Shown: piece by piece, positions 1-14,450 of the stretch
Layout: each line of letters starts with the position of its first letter
How positions within the stretch are numbered: the stretch's first letter is position 1
From: a virus
Taxonomy: Duplodnaviria > Heunggongvirae > Uroviricota > Caudoviricetes
IMG/VR virus record: IMGVR_UViG_2617270990_000006
Length of the DNA stretch: 14,499 nt
Reading direction: 5' to 3' (one strand)
Notes under the pieces: generated by a model
Seen by the model: the letters and a program-made list of their open reading frames with translations, nothing else
The model's database searches: none
Told to the model about the DNA's origin: nothing
Made by a program: the position numbers and the translations under genes

Positions 1-343
1 ATATTTGCTAATCTACTCGCCGCATTTTTAATTGACGACATAATCCAGCCATCGCTGGATTTCCCCCCCAGAAGTGCCGGATCCGAAAAGAAGAACTAAC
101 TCGTTGTGGAGAATAACAAAAATGGTCATCTGGAGCTTACAGGTGGCCATTCGTGGGACAGTATCCCTGACAGCCTACAAAACGCAATTGAAGAACGCGA
201 GGCATCGTCTTAACGAGGCACCGAGGCGTCGCATTCTTCAGATGGTTCAACCCTTAAGTTAGCGCTTATGGGACCCGCCCCCGCACCAACAACCCTGTTA
301 TCGTGTCGTCTGCTCTTCCTGATAAGCTAATGGCGGTTTGTGA

Positions 344-419
344 TGGTGGCCCTTGCTGGATTTGAACCAGCGACCTGGCGATTATGAGTCGCTCGCTCTC
401 ACCACTGAGCTAAAGGGCC
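344..419 (-). tRNA. tRNA with anticodon CAU (Ile2/ileX-like, as in ileZ of lambdoid/Stx phages; Met not excluded)
   Basis: Reverse complement GGCCCTTTAGCTCAGTGGTGAGAGCGAGCGACTCATAATCGCCAGGTCGCTGGTTCAAATCCAGCAAGGGCCACCA folds as a 76-nt cloverleaf: 7-bp acceptor stem, GCTC/GAGC D-stem, loop CTCATAA, GCTGG/CCAGC T-stem with TTCAAAT loop, encoded CCA. Close to E. coli ileX as I recall it. Confidence 0.85.
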
Positions 420-4794: not shown

Positions 4795-5673
4795 TCAGAC
4801 TGCAAGATCCAAGGGAAGATCAGAAATATCCTTTAATCTTTTACCATTAACCATCACGGAAAGCATGTCAGCTGCATCGCTGAGCCCCAGTATTTCAACT
4901 GCTGATATAAGTTCATAAAGCGCAAAATGATACACGCAATCTATATCACCAGTACCAAGAGCAATAGACGCCAGACGACTTGGAGTAGGCTCAGCAGTAA
5001 CAACCATTACATGAGGGAGATTTCCCTTACGGTTGCGAATAAGATTTAATGCCTCAGAACGAGCATTCTGGGCCCGGTCGCTTCTTATTGTCCATTTGCA
5101 GGAAATACTTGCGTGTAATATTGGTTTCCCACCATTCGAACTCCTGAGAGCTGACATGCGGGTAACAGAATCATCCACCAGTAATTCAGGACTGTTGATA
5201 ACTTGATCACATTCAGGTTCTCTTTCAACAATAATATCTGGTGAAATCGTATAATCACTCCCCAGTGCAGCAGCTAGCTGAGGATTACTTTTTGCAGCAC
5301 TATCCAATGCTATAAGATGGGCATATTGTTCATATTTAGCTATCTCTAATCTGTTTCTACCAGAAACCTGATGTACATTCCATTTTCCAGGGCGTAAGTG
5401 GCTGAGTTTAAAAAAGGTTTTTTCTATAAACTCTGCGCAGATACTCTCAAACTGATTACCAGATGTTTGCCCTGCAACACGTTCACCAATCGTTTCAGCC
5501 TGCAAGAAGCGAGCAATTTCTCTTGCTATAGCTTTACTGTTTTTGTTACTGCTATCTGCGTTACTAACAACTCCGGCAGTATTAATTGTGAGCGTATTCA
5601 GTAACAATTGGGCATGAAACTCCTTTCTGGCTTCAGCAAAACCAACTATGCTGTCAACCAAATCTCCATTCAT
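4795..5673 (-). CDS. Type II restriction endonuclease, NgoMIV/Cfr10I/Bse634I-like (CCGG-core site predicted)
   Basis: Preferred start is the ATG at 5673 (AAGGAAA SD 9 nt upstream, 14 nt after the methyltransferase stop); the track ORF runs to 5808 with a TTG. Motifs SPDIIV ... SCK ... E with Asp-to-Lys 47 aa and Lys-to-Glu 14 aa, the spacing I recall for NgoMIV (Asp140/Lys187/Glu201). Confidence 0.7.
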   Translation of the reverse strand: MNGDLVDSIVGFAEARKEFHAQLLLNTLTINTAGVVSNADSSNKNSKAIAREIARFLQAETIGERVAGQTSGNQFESICAEFIEKTFFKLSHLRPGKWNVHQVSGRNRLEIAKYEQYAHLIALDSAAKSNPQLAAALGSDYTISPDIIVEREPECDQVINSPELLVDDSVTRMSALRSSNGGKPILHASISCKWTIRSDRAQNARSEALNLIRNRKGNLPHVMVVTAEPTPSRLASIALGTGDIDCVYHFALYELISAVEILGLSDAADMLSVMVNGKRLKDISDLPLDLAV

Positions 5674-5686
5674 TTCTGGATTTCCT

Positions 5687-6811
5687 TCAGGCTGCTTGAC
5701 TATTCTTACTGATGTTATTCTTATACCGTCCCTGCAAAACTCCATACACATATTGTGCGATTTTTGCCGCAAATAGCGGTGGAACAGCATTCCCGATCTG
5801 CTTTGCAATCTCAGTTTTTGAACCGGTAAAAATGAAATTATCAGGAAAAGACATTAATCTCGCTGCCTCACGATGAGTTATTGGCCGATCCTCTTCCGGA
5901 TGTAAATATCGCCCTTTCTCCGGTTTGAAAAACTCAGTACGAATCGTTACTGAAGGTCTGTCCCACCACAGACGTCCAAACAAATCGGTCCCTCCAGATT
6001 TCTTTTTTAGCCAGCACGCCGGGGTTATATCAGGTCTTTTTTTCTGTAAATCGAAACGGTTACCTCCTGGTGGAACCGCTTTATATCGCTCCAAAGAAAC
6101 AGGTGTGGGATTACGCCCAAAATGTAAGTTCAGCGGAGGAAGTTCATTACGAATATCAGTTCCAACAGGAGCAGGTAAGTCACCAATTGCATCACGCGTA
6201 CAGACCCATTCAGGCAAAGCGACATCCTTATCAGGGGAACGATGCGTTGGTGCTGGCGGGAACGCCGGAATACTATGCACATCGAAGAGTTCTCGTTTGA
6301 TACCGATTGCTATCGTTCGTTTTCTTGTCTGAGGTACTCCATAGTCAGCAGTATTCAACACCATTGGATTAAGCAGAATAAAGCCCATGGATTTCGCTCT
6401 AAACGTAATGTCCGCAAACTCATCGCTTATCAGCAATCCGGGGACATTTTCCATGACGAACATACAAGCCCTTGAACGCTCAATGACATCCATATAAGGC
6501 TCCCACAATGCTCTTCGGTGATCACCATAACGATTCTTATTTAATAAACTGAATCCCTGACACGGGGGGCCACCTATGACCACATCAGCCTCAGGAACAG
6601 TATTGCTGGATGCCCACTCCTCAATATTTGCCTGAACTCCATGCAAACCAAAATTGGCATTGTAGGTATTTATAGCTGCAGCATTATTATCAATAGCAAG
6701 GATACTTTCAAAGTAGTCAGACATCTCTCCATGAAGAAAACCATAAGATAATCCACCTGCCCCACAAAAGAGGTCTATCACTCTGAATTTATTTAATTCT
6801 TTCATCCGCAT
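5687..6811 (-). CDS. DNA (cytosine-5)-methyltransferase, cognate of the adjacent endonuclease
   Basis: 374 aa with C5-MTase motifs in order: FCGAGG (I), GGPPCQGFS (IV), ENV (VI), QTRKR (VIII), GNAVPP (X). Confidence 0.9.
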   Translation of the reverse strand: MRMKELNKFRVIDLFCGAGGLSYGFLHGEMSDYFESILAIDNNAAAINTYNANFGLHGVQANIEEWASSNTVPEADVVIGGPPCQGFSLLNKNRYGDHRRALWEPYMDVIERSRACMFVMENVPGLLISDEFADITFRAKSMGFILLNPMVLNTADYGVPQTRKRTIAIGIKRELFDVHSIPAFPPAPTHRSPDKDVALPEWVCTRDAIGDLPAPVGTDIRNELPPLNLHFGRNPTPVSLERYKAVPPGGNRFDLQKKRPDITPACWLKKKSGGTDLFGRLWWDRPSVTIRTEFFKPEKGRYLHPEEDRPITHREAARLMSFPDNFIFTGSKTEIAKQIGNAVPPLFAAKIAQYVYGVLQGRYKNNISKNSQAA

Positions 6812-6989
6812 CCATATGCCTCAGATTAATGTTGAGCGTCTTACAGGACGCGTAATGTTAACTGGGGCTTTCTCTATCTGCCTTTTGGTGTTCATGCCTG
6901 AGGCAGACAGCCTCAGGCACCCGCAGCAATTCTACTTAACTCACGTCACCTCGCCAATATGAAATCAATCAGAAAGGTGATCCATAAAA

Positions 6990-7676
6990 TCACTCCTTCT
7001 CTTCTTTTCCGTAGTGGAGTTGGCCAATTTTGATAAGAGGGCGTCCCTGAGATTTGCGGTGTAGATTGGTATCGCGCAGAGAATACACACAGCCACAATA
7101 TTCCTGCTGATAGAATTTTTCGCGCTTGCTGATTTCAATCATACGGGACGAGCCGCCCTGCTTGCGCCAGTTATAATCCCAGTACACCATACCCGGATAA
7201 TGCGCAACAGCTCGCCGCCCACACTCGTTAACCTGCTGCATATTTTTCCAGCGTGAAATGCCCAGTGAACTGCTGATCACACTGAAACCATTTTCAGCAG
7301 CGTACAACGCTGTCCGCTCAAAACGCATGTCAAAACACATGGTACAACGGATCCCCCTCTCAGGCTCCCATTCCATTCCTTTGGCACGTTCAAACCAGTT
7401 GTCGGTGTCGTAATCAGCATCGATAAACGGCACGCCGTGTTGTTCAGCAAAGCGAATATTTTCATCCTTACGAATTAAATACTCTTTCTGAGGATGAATG
7501 TTCGGGTTGTAGAAAAAGATGGTGTAGTCGATTCCCGAGGCCTGAAGCGCCTCCATCACTTCACCGGAACATGGAGCACAGCAAGAGTGCAGTAGTAGTT
7601 TGTTTGCCCCGTTTGGGAGTTCCAATTTAGGCCGTTTGAAATCAGCAATAGTCATAAATATTTTTATTGGGGTCAT
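6990..7676 (-). CDS. QueH-like protein (DUF208, epoxyqueuosine reductase family)
   Basis: 228 aa. N-terminal [13 protein letters not shown] and C-terminal YCGCVYS conserved Cys motifs as I recall for QueH/DUF208. AT-rich like the neighbouring R-M genes. No convincing SD at either candidate ATG (7676 or 7655). Confidence 0.7.
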
Positions 7677-7829: not shown

Positions 7830-8225
7830 CTAGTAACGTCTAAAATACCTAACATTTCCTTGATAAAATGTCAGTACACGCTGCATAGCTTCGCTCTTCC
7901 GGCACTCGCGACAGATTATATTCAGGCGCCTGTCGTAGCGGCGTATTTCTCCGTCTGGTAACTTTCGAATCAGTGTCGGGTCAGCAGCCTTCTCCGGTGT
8001 CTTACGCCATACGCGATACGCCTGCTCTGATGGAAATACCCCGCAATCACAGAGCCAGACATCACCACTGGCCGCAAGCGCACCAGATAAACGACGAATA
8101 GCGGTCTTACTGACACCCGTTTTATCTGCCAGTTGTCGAAAAGTTTCTCGTCCGCTCAGGCGCACGAATTCCACAATGCGCGCCTTCACTTCTTCCCGCT
8201 CTTCTGGTGTAAATACTTTTGCCAT
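7830..8225 (-). CDS. Hypothetical protein with HTH-like segment and Cys pairs (131 aa from ATG at 8225)
   Basis: The track start at 8240 is TTG; the ATG at 8225 has GGAGG 5 nt upstream. LADKTGVSKTAIRRLSG is HTH-like; CDC ... CRECRK suggests a zinc ribbon. Confidence 0.5.
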   Translation of the reverse strand: MAKVFTPEEREEVKARIVEFVRLSGRETFRQLADKTGVSKTAIRRLSGALAASGDVWLCDCGVFPSEQAYRVWRKTPEKAADPTLIRKLPDGEIRRYDRRLNIICRECRKSEAMQRVLTFYQGNVRYFRRY

Positions 8226-8240
8226 AAGCGCCTCCGGCAA

Positions 8241-9011
8241 TCACTTTTCCGACACAATACGACCGGATGAATCGACAATCTGTCGAACAATATCCCGGTG
8301 CTTGTACAGCTCCCGCAGCGCGGCGCAGACTCGCTCCCACTTCTGAACCTGACCTTTTGCCCGGCGCAGCTCGCGGTTAGCCACATGCAGCGATGGTAAA
8401 ATCAGACCATCCGGATGTTTTCTGGTGAACGACGGCTGTGACTGCACTGTGACCGCCACACTTTCAGTTTTTATTTCTTCCTGTGTTTCCGCTTCCCGGA
8501 CAGGTAACGCAATACCTGCTGGCTGAGGAATGGCTTTACCATCCGTTTCCGCTACGGATGCAGCTTCCGGCTCTGCCGGTAAATCAGCGCCCGGTATGCA
8601 GTAACGAAATTTACCGTTCTGATTTACGCGTGCCAGGCGCCCCGTTGCTGTTACGACCGCCAACGTGGAAGCAACCTTGCGAATGCTAACACCGAACTTA
8701 TCCGCCAGTTCCTCACACGTTTTAGCCCCATCCTGACAGATAAACTCAATCATCATGTCCGCGGTAACTTTTTGTTCGACCTCCCCGGTCAGCATATCCT
8801 GTGCTTCAGATTTTACTGGCCGCTCTTCGGTTACCCGGGATTCACCTTCGCCAGCCAGAAACCAGGTGTGACCAGTTTTATCAACGACGCCATTTCTTTT
8901 GAGTTCCCACAGCTCGTTGACAGCCTCTTCACGACTGATTCCAAGGCGAGCTGCCACCACATGTGAAGAGGCTTTTTTCAGTGCTTTCAGTGCGTCAAAT
9001 ACGGTTTCCAT
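8241..9011 (-). CDS. Hypothetical protein with two winged-helix-like domains (256 aa from ATG at 9011)
   Basis: The track start at 9029 is TTG; the ATG at 9011 has GGAGG 8 nt upstream. Two HTH-like segments (AARLGISREEAVNELWELKRNG and EELADKFGVSIRKVASTL), an acidic linker and a basic C-terminus. Confidence 0.55.
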   Translation of the reverse strand: METVFDALKALKKASSHVVAARLGISREEAVNELWELKRNGVVDKTGHTWFLAGEGESRVTEERPVKSEAQDMLTGEVEQKVTADMMIEFICQDGAKTCEELADKFGVSIRKVASTLAVVTATGRLARVNQNGKFRYCIPGADLPAEPEAASVAETDGKAIPQPAGIALPVREAETQEEIKTESVAVTVQSQPSFTRKHPDGLILPSLHVANRELRRAKGQVQKWERVCAALRELYKHRDIVRQIVDSSGRIVSEK

Positions 9012-9044
9012 TAATATTTCCTCCGACAAAATCGTTTCTCAGAT

Positions 9045-9707
9045 TCAAATAAAACCAGCTGCCTTCCGGCGTTCGTATTCCTGTTTCAGCCGTTCAATTG
9101 GCGTTGGCCCTTGCGGGTGTTTCGCCCCTTCCAGTTGTCGTCGCACTGGCGGAACACTCATCCCGTTACCAACATGCTTTGCCCATTTCGTCAGTTGCCG
9201 TTCCGCAAGTCGTTTTAACTCACCCTGCGTCATCTGGCGCTCAATCCCTCTGGTACGCATTTCGAGGCAGATGTGGTACAGCACAGGCTGTGGCCACGGG
9301 TATTTATCACTCCCGTCGTATCGCCAGGATTCATTGCGCCAGCGCCGGTACTCTTCCATCACTGCATCCACCGTAAGACCAAATGGATTTGCCCCACTCT
9401 CCGAAATCAGTGCAACAAACTCAGCCAGGTCCGGGGGCCACGTTTCACCCGCCCGGCAGCGGTCCATGCACTGACGGCAGACCAGCCGGATTTGCTGTTC
9501 AGTCATCGCGCCAATCTGGGCAATCCAGAGCTTCGAAGGTGCGGCCCCGTTCTTCTGTGTCCAGCGGTTCGAATACACCTCCCCCATAAGCTCCCACAGC
9601 TTCCAGGCCGTTTCCGTTGCTGATAAATCCGTTGTCACGTTCCCACTGTTCGCGTGCTGCCCGGATTTCCTGAACTGCCCGTGATGCCGTGCCACCTGAT
9701 GCTGCAT
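9045..9707 (-). CDS. Replication protein P-like (helicase loader)
   Basis: 220 aa. ATG at 9707 with AAGGGGG SD 6 nt upstream. WPPDLAEFVALI, YPWPQPVLYHICL and MTQGELKRLAERQL resemble lambda P (PSPGQFVAWC, YPWKSNAHYWL, LTDAELRRKAADEL as recalled). Overlaps the O-like ORF by 209 nt out of frame. Confidence 0.6.
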   Translation of the reverse strand: MQHQVARHHGQFRKSGQHANSGNVTTDLSATETAWKLWELMGEVYSNRWTQKNGAAPSKLWIAQIGAMTEQQIRLVCRQCMDRCRAGETWPPDLAEFVALISESGANPFGLTVDAVMEEYRRWRNESWRYDGSDKYPWPQPVLYHICLEMRTRGIERQMTQGELKRLAERQLTKWAKHVGNGMSVPPVRRQLEGAKHPQGPTPIERLKQEYERRKAAGFI

Positions 9708-10515
9708 GGCTTACCCCCTTGCTGACTGGTTTTACCTGTGCCCTGACGTGCTGCACGTGGCGGGCAAATTTCTGCTCCCACTGAACCTGCGTGAAAACCT
9801 TCCCCTCCGCCATCCAGTAATCCCGGAATGCGGCAAGCTCTGCAGGTGTAAATTCCGGCTCAGGCAGAGCCATACCCCACACTGCTGCCCGTTGTCGAAA
9901 ATCCGACGACAGCTGCCAGACAGTAGTCATCGAAAATTTCCCGATCGGTTCGCTCAGGCCGTCCAGGTATTCAGGTTCGGCTGTCTGCAACGGCGCACCA
10001 TGCGACTCACCGGTTGGAGCACTCTCGCGCATGCGCGCGTTATGTGTGGGGTTTAATTCTGTATCTGTATCTTTATCTGTCGTGACTTGTCGTGACATGT
10101 GCGTGACATTTCGTGACGCGCCGTGACAATCGCCATTTTGTTCCCGCTTTCTTTCCCTCTCACGCTGCGCCCTCTTGCGCTCTGCCGGAGATTTTGCGGT
10201 TTGCGAAATATTGCCGTTGTCCTCTTTAAGCACCTGGCGTTTTTCCCATCCAGTGATTAAATCACCATCAAGTACCCGCCCCTGCATCGTCTGCAAAATT
10301 GAATCAATTACCTCTTCTGTCACGTCGAGCGCACTTGCCAAATCTTCTGTCGTGACATCAATGTGACCTCGCGTGACATTTCGTGACGCGCTCACCAGGA
10401 GGTGGATATACACTGCCATCACTGTTGCAATTGGCTGCCCTGACACCCTGGCAATTGTTCGCCACTTAGGGTCATTTGGCATGTCATGCCATAATCTGAG
10501 CCAGGCGTTAGCCAT
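9499..10515 (-). CDS. Replication initiator (O-like) with origin iterons inside the coding sequence
   Basis: 338 aa from the ATG at 10515 (AAGAGGTG SD); the track start at 10521 is GTG. Two clusters of phased CGTGAC repeats fall inside the gene and encode a repeated ASRNVT peptide. Sits between the cII-position gene and the P-like gene. Confidence 0.65.
   Translation of the reverse strand: MANAWLRLWHDMPNDPKWRTIARVSGQPIATVMAVYIHLLVSASRNVTRGHIDVTTEDLASALDVTEEVIDSILQTMQGRVLDGDLITGWEKRQVLKEDNGNISQTAKSPAERKRAQRERERKREQNGDCHGASRNVTHMSRQVTTDKDTDTELNPTHNARMRESAPTGESHGAPLQTAEPEYLDGLSEPIGKFSMTTVWQLSSDFRQRAAVWGMALPEPEFTPAELAAFRDYWMAEGKVFTQVQWEQKFARHVQHVRAQVKPVSKGVSHAASGGTASRAVQEIRAAREQWERDNGFISNGNGLEAVGAYGGGVFEPLDTEERGRTFEALDCPDWRDD
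10081..10127. repeat. Iteron cluster A: five CGTGAC repeats phased 10-11 bp (candidate ori)
   Basis: CGTGAC at 10081, 10091, 10102, 10112 and 10122. Preceded by an AT-rich stretch (10050-10080) and the palindrome CGCGCATGCGCG (10026-10037). Confidence 0.6.
10351..10391. repeat. Iteron cluster B: four (C/T)GTGAC repeats phased 10-11 bp
   Basis: Repeats at 10351, 10362 (TGTGAC), 10372 and 10382. The 21-mer GCGTGACATTTCGTGACGCGC at 10371-10391 is an exact copy of 10101-10121. Confidence 0.55.
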
Positions 10516-11378: not shown

Positions 11379-11879
11379 ATGAAAAGAAAATCCCTGTCAG
11401 AGATCGACCTGCAAGCCGCCCAGAGACTGAAAGAAATCTGGACGGCGAAAAAAAATCAACTAGGGTTAACCCAAGAGCGTGCGGCAGAAATTCTGGGATT
11501 TTCGACACAGGGAGCTGTAAGCCATTATCTAAATGGTCAGACACCTTTAAATCTTGAGGCTGTTATCAAGTTCGCAGGGTTGCTGCAAGTTCCTCCCGAG
11601 TCAATCAGACCAGATATGGCCGAGTTGTTACAAATTGTAAGGATGTATCCCCAAGAATCTGGGGAGGACAATGTTGTCACTATATCTGCAGATATGGAAC
11701 AATCGGAAAACGAACTTCCGTTTAATATAGACCCCATGGAGCGGGATTTGCTCCAGACGTTCAGGGCTTTCCCCAAAGAAGATAAAGAGAAAATGCTTAA
11801 GGAAATGAAGGAGAAAAAAGAATCAATTGAAGAAATCGTTGCGCGATGGCTAGCTGCGCAAAAGGGTCGTCGCGCCTAA
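11379..11879 (+). CDS. paaR: Prophage repressor, HTH-XRE type without a LexA-like cleavage domain (PaaR-like)
   Basis: 166 aa. HTH LGLTQERAAEILGFSTQGAVSHYLNGQ. C-terminus is acidic/Lys-rich with no Ala-Gly or Ser/Lys peptidase motifs. First gene of a three-gene operon in the cI position. Confidence 0.7.
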   Translation: MKRKSLSEIDLQAAQRLKEIWTAKKNQLGLTQERAAEILGFSTQGAVSHYLNGQTPLNLEAVIKFAGLLQVPPESIRPDMAELLQIVRMYPQESGEDNVVTISADMEQSENELPFNIDPMERDLLQTFRAFPKEDKEKMLKEMKEKKESIEEIVARWLAAQKGRRA

Positions 11880-11896: not shown

Positions 11897-12088
11897 ATGA
11901 GTACAGCCCTTTCCCCGATAATTTCTGAATTTGAAACAGTCGAACAAGAAAACAGCTATAACGAATGGTTGCGAACCAAAGTGGCAGCAAGCCTCTCAGA
12001 TCCCCGTCCTGCAATTCCACATGACGAAGTAATGGCTGAAATGGAAAACCTTATTGCTCAATTAGCTGCAACGAACAGGAGTGAGTAA
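11897..12088 (+). CDS. paaA: Antitoxin of the ParE toxin (PaaA-like)
   Basis: 63 aa. GAGGAGG SD 7 nt upstream. Stop overlaps the toxin start (TAATG). Length and context match the PaaA2 antitoxin of the paaR2-paaA2-parE2 system as recalled. Confidence 0.65.
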   Translation: MSTALSPIISEFETVEQENSYNEWLRTKVAASLSDPRPAIPHDEVMAEMENLIAQLAATNRSE

Positions 12089-12378
12089 TGCTGCCCATTT
12101 TATGGCTACCTTCTGCACGTGATGATTTACGTCAGATCGTAGCCTATATTGCTAAGGAAAACCCTCCCGCTGCACGTAGACTAAAAATACGCATTGAAAC
12201 ATCAGTTTTGTCACTTACTGAACACCCTTATCTGTACCCACCGAGCGAAAGAGTTCCAAGTCTTCGTGAGATAGTGACTCATCCTAACTACATAATACTT
12301 TACCGAGTAACAGCATCTAACATCGAGATCGTAAATGTAGTTCACTCACGAAGACAGTATCCAAACAAAACCTGTTAA
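12088..12378 (+). CDS. parE: ParE/RelE-superfamily toxin
   Basis: 96 aa. ParE-like pattern: WLPSARDDLRQIVAYIAKENPPAARRL ... LREIVTHPNYIILYRV ... IEIVNVVHSRR. AGGAG SD; coupled to the antitoxin. Confidence 0.85.
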   Translation: MLPILWLPSARDDLRQIVAYIAKENPPAARRLKIRIETSVLSLTEHPYLYPPSERVPSLREIVTHPNYIILYRVTASNIEIVNVVHSRRQYPNKTC

Positions 12379-13236: not shown

Positions 13237-14127
13237 TCAGGCTGCCAGATCATCGTTTCCGATGGAAGCATAATAAGCTTTTTCTGCTTCTGCCGGAGGA
13301 GTATGGCCCAGCCTTCCCAGCAATCGTCGATTGTTATACCAGTCCACCCACGTTAGTGTGGCCAGTTCCACTTCTGCACGGTTTTTCCAGCTCTTACGGT
13401 GTATTACCTCCGCTTTGTAAAGACCATTGATGCTCTCAGCCATCGCGTTGTCATACGAGTCGCCTGTACTCCCTGTTGATGCCAGTAATCCGGCTTCTTT
13501 TAGTCGCTCCGTATAGGCCAGTGACACATACTGAGAGCCTTTATCGCTGTGATGGATGGTGCCAGACGGACGACGGGCCCACAACGCCTGCTCCAGCGCA
13601 TCCAGCACGAATGTCGTTTCCATAGACGATGAGACCCGCCACCCCACGATGTATCCGGCAAACACATCAATGATAAACGCCACATAGACGAAGCCCTGCC
13701 ATGTGCTGACGTAAGTAAAATCAGCCACCCACAGCTGGTCAGGTCGTTCTGCCACGAACTGACGGTTTACGCGGTCGCCTGCGGCAACGGCTTTCCGGCT
13801 GATGGTCGTACGGACCTTTTTACCCCGGAGAACACCGGCAAGTCCCATAACCGCCATGAGACGTGCCACTGTACATCTGGCCACCCTGATTCCTTCCCGT
13901 AACAACTGACGCCAGACTTTACGCACACCGTACACCTGATGATTTTCATCGTATACGCGCTGTATCTCTCTCTTCAGCCAGTCGTCGTGCTGCGCACGGG
14001 CACTGCGTTTATCCGGATGATGTCGCTGTTGCTGACAATGGTAATACGTTGACGGGGCAATATGCAGTTCGCTGCATACCGGTCCGACCCCGTACTGCTC
14101 ACGCAGCTTATCCAGCAGTGGCATCAT
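13237..14127 (-). CDS. IS3-family transposase OrfB (integrase core, DDE)
   Basis: 296 aa matching IS629 OrfB as recalled ([16 protein letters not shown] ...). DDE residues in [17 protein letters not shown] and [15 protein letters not shown] overlap with orfA. Confidence 0.9.
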
Positions 14128-14450
14128 TTTTTCCAGAGGCGGTCGAACTCCGCCTTCGCAAAATAAGCGGAAGCCTGGCGAAGGATATCGTTACTGCGGC
14201 GCAGTTCACGATTTTCACGTTCCAGCTCTTTCAGACGCTGACGTTCAGCGCTGGTGAGCCCACCATCACCGCCCCCGGTATCCCGCTCATGCTGGCGAAC
14301 CCAGACACGCAGAGTCTCCGGCGTACAGCCAATCTTTGGGGCAATGGAACAAATTGCCGCCCACTGTGAGTCATATTCATCCTGACTTTCCAGAACCATA
14401 CGAATCGCCCGCTGACGGACTTCGGGGGAAAAACGAGTATTTTTAGTCAT
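14124..14450 (-). CDS. IS3-family transposase OrfA (HTH/leucine-zipper part)
   Basis: 108 aa, [51 protein letters not shown] ..., matching IS629/IS1203 OrfA as recalled. A-rich run GGAAAAAATGA at the orfA/orfB junction suits -1 frameshifting. Confidence 0.9.

Follow-up and report, generated by a model that had tools for sequence, protein, structure and literature searches.

A YdaW-family gene and a Ren-like gene downstream of the replication genes of a lambdoid prophage

Gene order and signals at the locus

The window analyzed here is a 14,499-nucleotide stretch of DNA from the Caudoviricetes record IMGVR_UViG_2617270990_000006 in IMG/VR. Its minus strand encodes, in order, a Cro-like protein, a YdaT-like protein, an O-like initiator, replication protein P, two genes termed A and B, and a block of cargo genes. 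A DnaT-like domain is present in the O-like initiator, whose gene contains 10-bp iterons at 10078-10127 and 10348-10387. The cargo genes encode QueH, a sok-type RNA, a Dcm methyltransferase and an NgoMIV-type endonuclease, and are followed by the DUF968, RusA and Q genes. The coordinates of A, B and their flanking features are collected in Table 1.

Table 1. Features of the gene pair and its immediate neighbors in the window
Feature	Residues	Position	Strand	Remarks
Replication protein P (lambda-P-type helicase loader)		9045..9506	-	Pfam PF06992, 1.3e-15; RefSeq 'replication protein P'
SD GGAGG of gene A		9020..9024	-	8 nt 5' of ATG; sequence reading
Gene A (YdaW-family / DUF1627)	256 aa	8241..9011	-	ATG 9011; stop TGA 8243-8241
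A wHTH1	about 1-55	8847..9011	-	AlphaFold2 pLDDT 83-90
A linker 1	56-79		-	disordered, acidic, net charge -3
A wHTH2, Ren-type	about 84-140	8592..8762	-	AlphaFold2 pLDDT ~80
A linker 2	143-182		-	disordered, acidic, Pro/Ala/Glu-rich, variable length, net charge -7
A C-terminal region	191-256	8244..8441	-	'PSFT..D.LI.PS' motif and basic helix
SD GGAGG of gene B		8231..8235	-	5 nt 5' of ATG; within A-B spacer
Gene B (LygF / DUF977, Ren-like)	131 aa	7830..8225	-	ATG 8225; stop TAG 7832-7830
B winged helix	1-75	8001..8225	-	AlphaFold2 confident over 7-75, pLDDT >90
B C-terminal motif	89-123	7857..7961	-	near-invariant; AlphaFold2 pLDDT 45-63
QueH, first gene of variable cargo		6990..7676	-	Pfam PF02677, 1.1e-65

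Genes A and B are the two open reading frames that the earlier note had placed between P and the cargo block. Both are present as described: they lie co-oriented and tightly spaced 3' of P, and each is preceded by a strong GGAGG SD. The spacer between the stop codon of P and the ATG of A measures 33 nt. Between the stop codon of A and the ATG of B, where 13 nt had been reported, the coordinates give 15 nt. The genes had also been described as translationally coupled. Because their stop and start codons do not overlap, this description can stand for close spacing at most, and B has a separate SD.

A scan for promoters and terminators across P, A and B returned counts no higher than those in shuffled controls. 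From this lack of signal between the genes, we infer that P, A and B form one transcription unit. An Rfam search gave no match inside 7830-9011. Likewise, a repeat search for candidate operators near A and B found only short pairs at chance level, and the iterons are the sole clear repeats.

E. coli strains B-1109 and JKHS016 carry the 1.3 kb region with 100% DNA identity. In that DNA, RefSeq annotates just the two coding sequences, as a “DUF1627 domain-containing protein” (A, WP_032178993.1) and a “DUF977 family protein” (B, WP_032178995.1). Both genes are under purifying selection. In pairwise comparisons with homologues, A has a dN/dS of about 0.26-0.38 and B one of 0.17-0.34; in the conserved C-terminus of B the ratio is mostly 0.03-0.17, rising to 0.28 in a few near-identical pairs. 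On the basis of these ratios, the RefSeq annotation and the Pfam scores given below, A and B are genuine genes and not chance open reading frames.

Families and architecture of the two proteins

While the earlier note could place neither protein in a known family, both have one. A belongs to DUF1627/YdaW (PF07789, phrog_630) and B to DUF977/LygF (PF06163), as well as to phrog_142, the family that also holds lambda Ren. The accompanying description of DNA-binding-like proteins of uncharacterized function is borne out for the winged-helix architecture, and the biochemical function is indeed uncharacterized; only the lack of a family has to be given up.

A matches the Pfam DUF1627 model with 280.4 bits (E 4.4e-84), above the gathering cut-off of 28.1 bits, and all 155 profile positions (1-155) align to its residues 91-245. 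The Pfam model does not cover the N-terminal wHTH1. The match to phrog_630 (2.7e-131) extends over residues 1-252, wHTH1 included. Residues 1-154 are 55% identical to YdaW of the E. coli K-12 Rac prophage, which lies in the same position after a loader gene (ydaV-ydaW). A is the full-length form of this product: K-12 YdaW is truncated because Rac is deleted downstream, and is left without acidic linker, conserved motif or C-terminal helix. The intact phage Rac-SA53 carries ydaV (loader), ydaW (253 aa) and lygF (140 aa). An exhaustive HMMER search of 1.84 billion cluster representatives recovered only 160 clusters of the A family at E<=1e-3, and the named sources, together with related genome loci, are E. 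coli, Salmonella, Enterobacter, Citrobacter, Serratia and Leclercia. The family is thus narrow and enterobacterial.

The architecture of A was defined from an alignment of 40 family members (20-86% identity) and an AlphaFold2 model with a mean pLDDT of 67, in which the winged helices span residues 1-53 and 84-138. Alignment, model and charges agree with what had been read from the sequence earlier, namely two winged helices, an acidic linker and a basic tail. L34 and W50 of wHTH1 are invariant in the 40 sequences, and phrog_16668 matches this part alone. The second winged helix is Ren-type: residues 84-136 match phrog_142 at 2.1e-6, and residues 73-118 are 39% identical to residues 4-51 of B. 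Given this similarity, A and B are partial paralogues. A conserved motif at about residues 190-208 has the family consensus IPxF...DxLxxP, and is followed by a predicted C-terminal helix (208-255; net charge +6, pI 10.5) with the family consensus EIRRTKxxLxxLExLRxAxRxLxKH, in which R216 is nearly invariant. Residues 191-256 are matched on their own by phrog_29124. The winged helices themselves are nearly neutral, with net charges of 0 and +2, which lends little weight to DNA binding.

B matches the Pfam DUF977 model with 132.2 bits (E 1.6e-38; profile positions 1-133 of 134), above the gathering cut-off of 22.1 bits, and phrog_142, annotated as “Ren-like exclusion protein”, at 2.7e-40. Its homologues are named LygF in phage GenBank records. 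The allele in the window lacks a basic insertion of about nine residues ('KKxSRAK..KK') that most members have, and is otherwise a full-length member. The HTH-like segment noted earlier is modeled by AlphaFold2 as a single confident winged helix. The C-terminal motif has the consensus LPDGEIRRYDRRxNIICRECRKSxxMQRVLxFY and is partly shared with the C-terminus of lambda Ren. The protein is basic (pI ~10). Fusions of DUF977 winged helices to Fic domains are known (PMC2686095).

The paired cysteines to which attention had been drawn in B do not hold up as a feature of the family. C58 and C60 are not conserved, most homologues having S-G-Y-G instead. C105 and C108 (CxxC) are conserved in DUF977, and lambda Ren retains the second cysteine only. 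A metal site in B was considered and rejected on these grounds.

Structural comparison, which the earlier note had proposed, recovers winged helices and no specific structural relative. With the model of A, Foldseek returns tandem winged-helix proteins (ScpB, SelB C-terminal domains and ESCRT-II subunits) and the DNA-binding domains of MarR and IclR. These proteins share with A the domain fold class and the two-domain arrangement (E 1e-4 to 1e-3); however, TM-scores are only ~0.2 and there is no sequence similarity, so that the resemblance is generic and does not amount to membership. With B, only generic winged helices of IclR, MntR, GntR and Zalpha type are found. When Foldseek was run on the PDB with both models and on BFVD with A, all matches were generic single or tandem winged helices (TM ~0.2-0.4), and a PDB sequence search with A and B gave nothing below E 0.07. 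NCBIfam contains no family above cut-off for either protein. Against the PADLOC defense models, only weak matches at the level of the winged helix were obtained (E ~1e-3), and no defense family.

The relation of B to lambda Ren is supported at several levels. Authentic lambda Ren matches phrog_142 at 1.6e-41 and hence falls in the same PHROG as B. Both proteins are small and have an N-terminal winged helix, and in both cases the gene is placed behind that of the helicase loader within the early rightward operon. In BLASTP, B aligns to lambda Ren with 27% identity (E 4e-7) over the helix-turn-helix and the C-terminal motif, which reads NIICRECRKSEAMQRVLTFY in B and NLVFKECRQSAAMKRVLAVY in lambda Ren. 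The two share N-I/L-x-x-x-ECR-x-S-x-x-M-x-RVL-x-x-Y, with the core ECRxSxAMxRVL. A DUF977 HMM built for this analysis gives lambda Ren 24 bits; the Pfam DUF977 model does not list it at E<=1, so that the relation is a remote one, yet consistent. B is thus a longer homologue of lambda Ren (131 versus 96 aa), in which some 19-35 additional residues separate the wing from the C-terminal motif. A search of viral contigs for diverse Ren homologues returned only copies that were 99-100% identical.

The placement also differs. The P and ren genes of lambda share 4 nt, whereas B is preceded by A rather than P, and without overlap. The co-translated O-P-ren arrangement is therefore not found in the window, where A intervenes and the genes have spacers of 33 and 15 nt and separate SDs.

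Conservation and variation of the cassette

The 1.3 kb region is matched in 3886 of 5426 complete E. coli genomes (~70%), and at least 80% of it is covered in 1226 of them. It occurs in up to nine places per genome, and several copies are common. The pair is found in both Stx-phage-like and Rac-like prophages. To describe its surroundings, we used 80 related viral contigs, 75 of which have room downstream. In all 75, DUF977 directly follows DUF1627 with the identical 15-nt spacer. The cassette is linked to two loader types, the upstream gene being DnaC-like in about 56 loci and P-like in about 18, and the downstream neighbor varies, with QueH in 30 loci and at least seven other genes elsewhere.

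DUF1627 directly follows the last replication gene in the window, as it does in 79 related loci and, of 12 distant genome loci, in the 11 whose flanks were examined. Its association with DUF977 is looser. Canonical DUF977 is often absent beside DUF1627 in distant Enterobacterales genomes, and since several of these have no recognizable DUF977 neighbor, the partnership is not obligatory. Other Ren-like genes occur at such sites. For example, in Citrobacter braakii and in a metagenome-assembled genome, a 109-aa Ren-like gene precedes DUF1627 (phrog_142 at 7e-14 and 3e-11, respectively), and in Leclercia an 87-aa gene matching phrog_2391 and phrog_142 follows it. As judged from these neighbors, DUF1627 and small Ren-type winged-helix genes travel together at the ends of replication modules in variable order. 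Lambda has ren only, and DUF1627 is missing entirely from many lambdoid phages.

Variation in B is concentrated in helix2-turn-helix3 (residues 29-53), where column entropy averages 1.35 bits per column compared with 0.33 in the C-terminal motif. There are three main alleles of this segment, including VSKTAIRRLSGAL and ATRYLMSVLAREL, and each occurs with either loader type and either allele of A. A tie between B allele and type of replication module was considered and discarded, as all combinations occur; the sampling is not independent. Positive selection on the recognition helix was likewise rejected. Synonymous sites between alleles are saturated (pS 0.65-0.79) and dN/dS is ~0.2-0.35, so that the differences represent old mosaic variation and not current positive selection.

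Possible roles of the pair

Lambda ren is located after O and P and is co-translated with both, according to the supplement of bioRxiv 10.1101/2021.04.19.439022. Every module of initiator and helicase loader is said to carry ren (Weigel and Seitz 2006, as cited in bioRxiv 10.1101/2021.04.19.439022). The same preprint attributes to Toothman and Herskowitz (1980) the findings that growth of ren mutants is poor on Rex+ lysogens and that mutations suppressing this phenotype lie in O and P. Its supplement reports binding between RexB and Ren in a yeast two-hybrid assay, and binding of O and Ren each by RexA and RexB in a bacterial two-hybrid assay; its main text describes ren as “likely involved in DNA replication”. 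In a CRISPRi study, ren was dispensable for plaque formation when polarity on Q was relieved. Ren is characterized only genetically, its mechanism being less well characterized. The earlier note had held that identification of either gene as a known ren protein would count against an uncharacterized pair; because B falls in the PHROG of Ren, this is largely what was found for the downstream gene, within the genetic limits of what Ren itself is known for.

No study of the function of a full-length DUF1627 or DUF977 protein emerged from a search of the literature on LygF, DUF1627, DUF977, ydaW and Ren-like proteins. K-12 ydaW was recovered in an overexpression screen among the prophage genes that block toxicity of RcaT from retron-Sen2 (bioRxiv 10.1101/2020.06.22.160242); this came from one screen, in which the protein was C-terminally truncated. 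YdaW also appears among predicted E. coli transcription factors without an assigned function (PMC9308461). From the Ren literature and the ydaW screen result, an anti-exclusion role for A and B is plausible.

Our preferred reading, to which we assign a probability of about 0.55, is that A and B are Ren-type accessory proteins of the replication module that aid escape from exclusion. This figure draws mostly on the identity of the proteins. Family membership, domain architecture, purifying selection, the fixed cassette and its linkage to both helicase-loader types are established here, and the function is a proposal. Under this reading, the co-oriented genes, which sit in the “ren slot” 3' of the O-like gene and P and before the variable nin or cargo genes, are delayed-early genes of a lambdoid prophage. 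The early rightward promoter would drive their transcription along with that of O and P, and they would serve the replication module as non-essential accessory factors. B, by analogy with lambda Ren, would most likely sustain phage replication and lytic growth in the presence of Rex or another exclusion or abortive-infection system, acting through winged-helix contacts with the initiator, exclusion proteins or DNA. A, as a partial paralogue, would serve as partner or scaffold in the same process. Several observations speak against a Ren-type reading: the link to Ren is one of remote homology at 27% identity, B is neither adjacent to P nor overlapping with the gene upstream, the partnership with DUF977 is not obligatory in distant genomes, the winged helices of A are nearly neutral, and the ydaW result comes from one screen of a truncated protein.

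The target of such escape cannot be restricted to a Rex system of the prophage itself. While lambda has rexAB beside its repressor gene, rexA and rexB are absent next to the cI-like gene of this prophage (11379-11879), and their position is taken by PaaA2 (1e-21) and ParE (6.6e-18). For this reason, a role limited to escaping its own Rex cannot apply.

A and B might instead be direct counter-defense proteins that bind and neutralize toxins of the host or of prophages, such as RexAB-like proteins or retron effectors, with their position reflecting only the timing of early expression. We consider this unlikely, even though several observations fit. Escape from Rex exclusion is the defining trait of lambda Ren, which in the two-hybrid assays of the preprint supplement binds RexA and RexB (bioRxiv 10.1101/2021.04.19.439022); K-12 ydaW, which corresponds to the two winged helices of A, was listed among the prophage genes that block retron RcaT toxicity (bioRxiv 10.1101/2020.06.22.160242). 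In addition, old and reassorting HTH alleles in an otherwise conserved B are what would be expected of a specificity surface, and the Foldseek matches of A include tandem winged helices that bind protein and not DNA (ScpB, ESCRT-II). However, the suppressors in O and P (bioRxiv 10.1101/2021.04.19.439022) point to replication and not to simple sequestration of a toxin. The B alleles show no sign of ongoing positive selection, given their saturated synonymous sites and low dN/dS, no known defense-associated family was matched, and the ydaW result concerns the truncated and not the full-length protein. A more ambitious proposal along these lines would make the YdaW-LygF cassette a widespread two-protein counter-defense module of enterobacterial lambdoid phages, in which B disarms Rex-type exclusion, A blocks retron-type or other abortive-infection toxins, and the HTH alleles of B set the defense or initiator that is recognized; we offer it as speculation and regard it as doubtful.

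The winged helices could also indicate sequence-specific DNA-binding regulators that control read-through into the nin, cargo or Q genes, act at the origin in the O-like gene or repress host genes. Both proteins are confidently modeled as winged helices whose folds most resemble those of IclR, MarR, GntR and MntR regulators, B is basic, its variable recognition helix resembles the specificity switching of repressors, and K-12 YdaW is among the predicted transcription factors (PMC9308461). Against this, there is no repeated candidate operator around A and B, only the iterons of the O-like gene being clear, and no promoter-like site above chance nearby. Furthermore, the ligand-binding or dimerization domain typical of those regulator families is absent, the winged helices of A are close to neutral, and conservation of B is strongest outside the HTH. 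A regulatory function thus seems improbable.

Least likely of all, and in our view very doubtful, is a dedicated replication function with no link to defense, whether in modulating assembly of initiator, loader and DnaB or in a switch from theta to rolling-circle replication: it would fit the invariable place of the genes directly 3' of the last replication gene, whether the module is P-type, DnaC-type or another, the statement on replication quoted above and the two-hybrid contacts of the Rex proteins with O (bioRxiv 10.1101/2021.04.19.439022, main text and supplement, respectively), but lambda forms plaques without Ren in the CRISPRi study, many lambdoid phages do without DUF1627, lambda itself having ren only, and occurrence of the same A-B cassette with the unrelated loaders P and DnaC argues against a specific loader contact.

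We therefore return to A and B as probable Ren-type accessory proteins. As an element the pair is nothing new: it is catalogued already and very common among prophages, and the window gives no special leverage on what it does. The function of proteins in the ren slot is nevertheless a real question: the pair is matched in about 70% of complete E. coli genomes, yet DUF1627, DUF977 and even Ren, 45 years after it was described genetically, lack a known biochemical role.

Gene order around the DUF1627 and Ren-like genes

Ren-like genes also occur beside DUF1627 genes in distant genomes. In Citrobacter braakii and a soil metagenome-assembled genome, the Ren-like gene is placed between the genes for a DnaC-like loader and the DUF1627 protein, the reverse of the order in E. 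coli. In Leclercia, the end of the DUF1627 gene is overlapped by a shorter phrog_2391/phrog_142 gene, phrog_142 being the family of Ren-like exclusion proteins. A database protein (P0002, 204 aa), present on just one contig, matches both Pfam families, DUF1627 and DUF977. It appears to fuse the C-terminus of gene A, the YdaW-family gene downstream of P, to gene B, its Ren-like neighbor, and may reflect a frameshift or read-through artefact.

Features of the window and of related loci (L167, L168, L173; own coordinates)
Feature	Location	Strand	Evidence	Setting
tRNA gene	347-419	-	Rfam, 72 bits	Late-regulatory region
Cargo block: QueH, DNA cytosine methyltransferase, NgoMIV-family type II restriction endonuclease	4795-7676	-		Directly after gene B
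sok antitoxin RNA	6742-6922	-	Rfam RF01794	Between QueH and Dcm methyltransferase
Repeat clusters, 10-bp period	10078-10127; 10348-10387		TGTCGTGACA-like	Within O-like initiator gene
PaaA2-type antitoxin and ParE toxin genes	11897-12378	+	PF21217, 1e-21; PF05016, 7e-18	
IS3-family insertion sequence, orfA/orfB	13237-14450	-		Left of immunity region
ALIL frameshift pseudoknot	14053-14169		Rfam, 121 bits	IS3-family element
Ren-like genes, 109 aa	L167:4662-4991; L168:4974-5303			C. braakii; soil metagenome-assembled genome
phrog_2391/phrog_142 gene, 87 aa	L173:5692-5955			Leclercia

Replication, immunity and late regions

The two repeat clusters are probably origin iterons, a feature in which the window would resemble lambda. 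The antitoxin and toxin genes, whose stop and start overlap, directly adjoin the end of the cI-like repressor gene, a location held in lambda by rexA and rexB. At the other end of the window, the tRNA gene lies downstream of a DNA methylase gene.

Cargo downstream of gene B

Among the cargo proteins, Pfam identifies QueH (PF02677, 1e-65) and the restriction endonuclease (PF09015, 1e-126). The sok RNA match scores 61 bits, where the gathering score is 59, and suggests that a hok/sok-type toxin-antitoxin locus lies within the island. The GC content of the block (0.40-0.46) is below that of its flanks. As the position after gene B is occupied by different genes in related loci, the site has the appearance of a hotspot for moron insertion.
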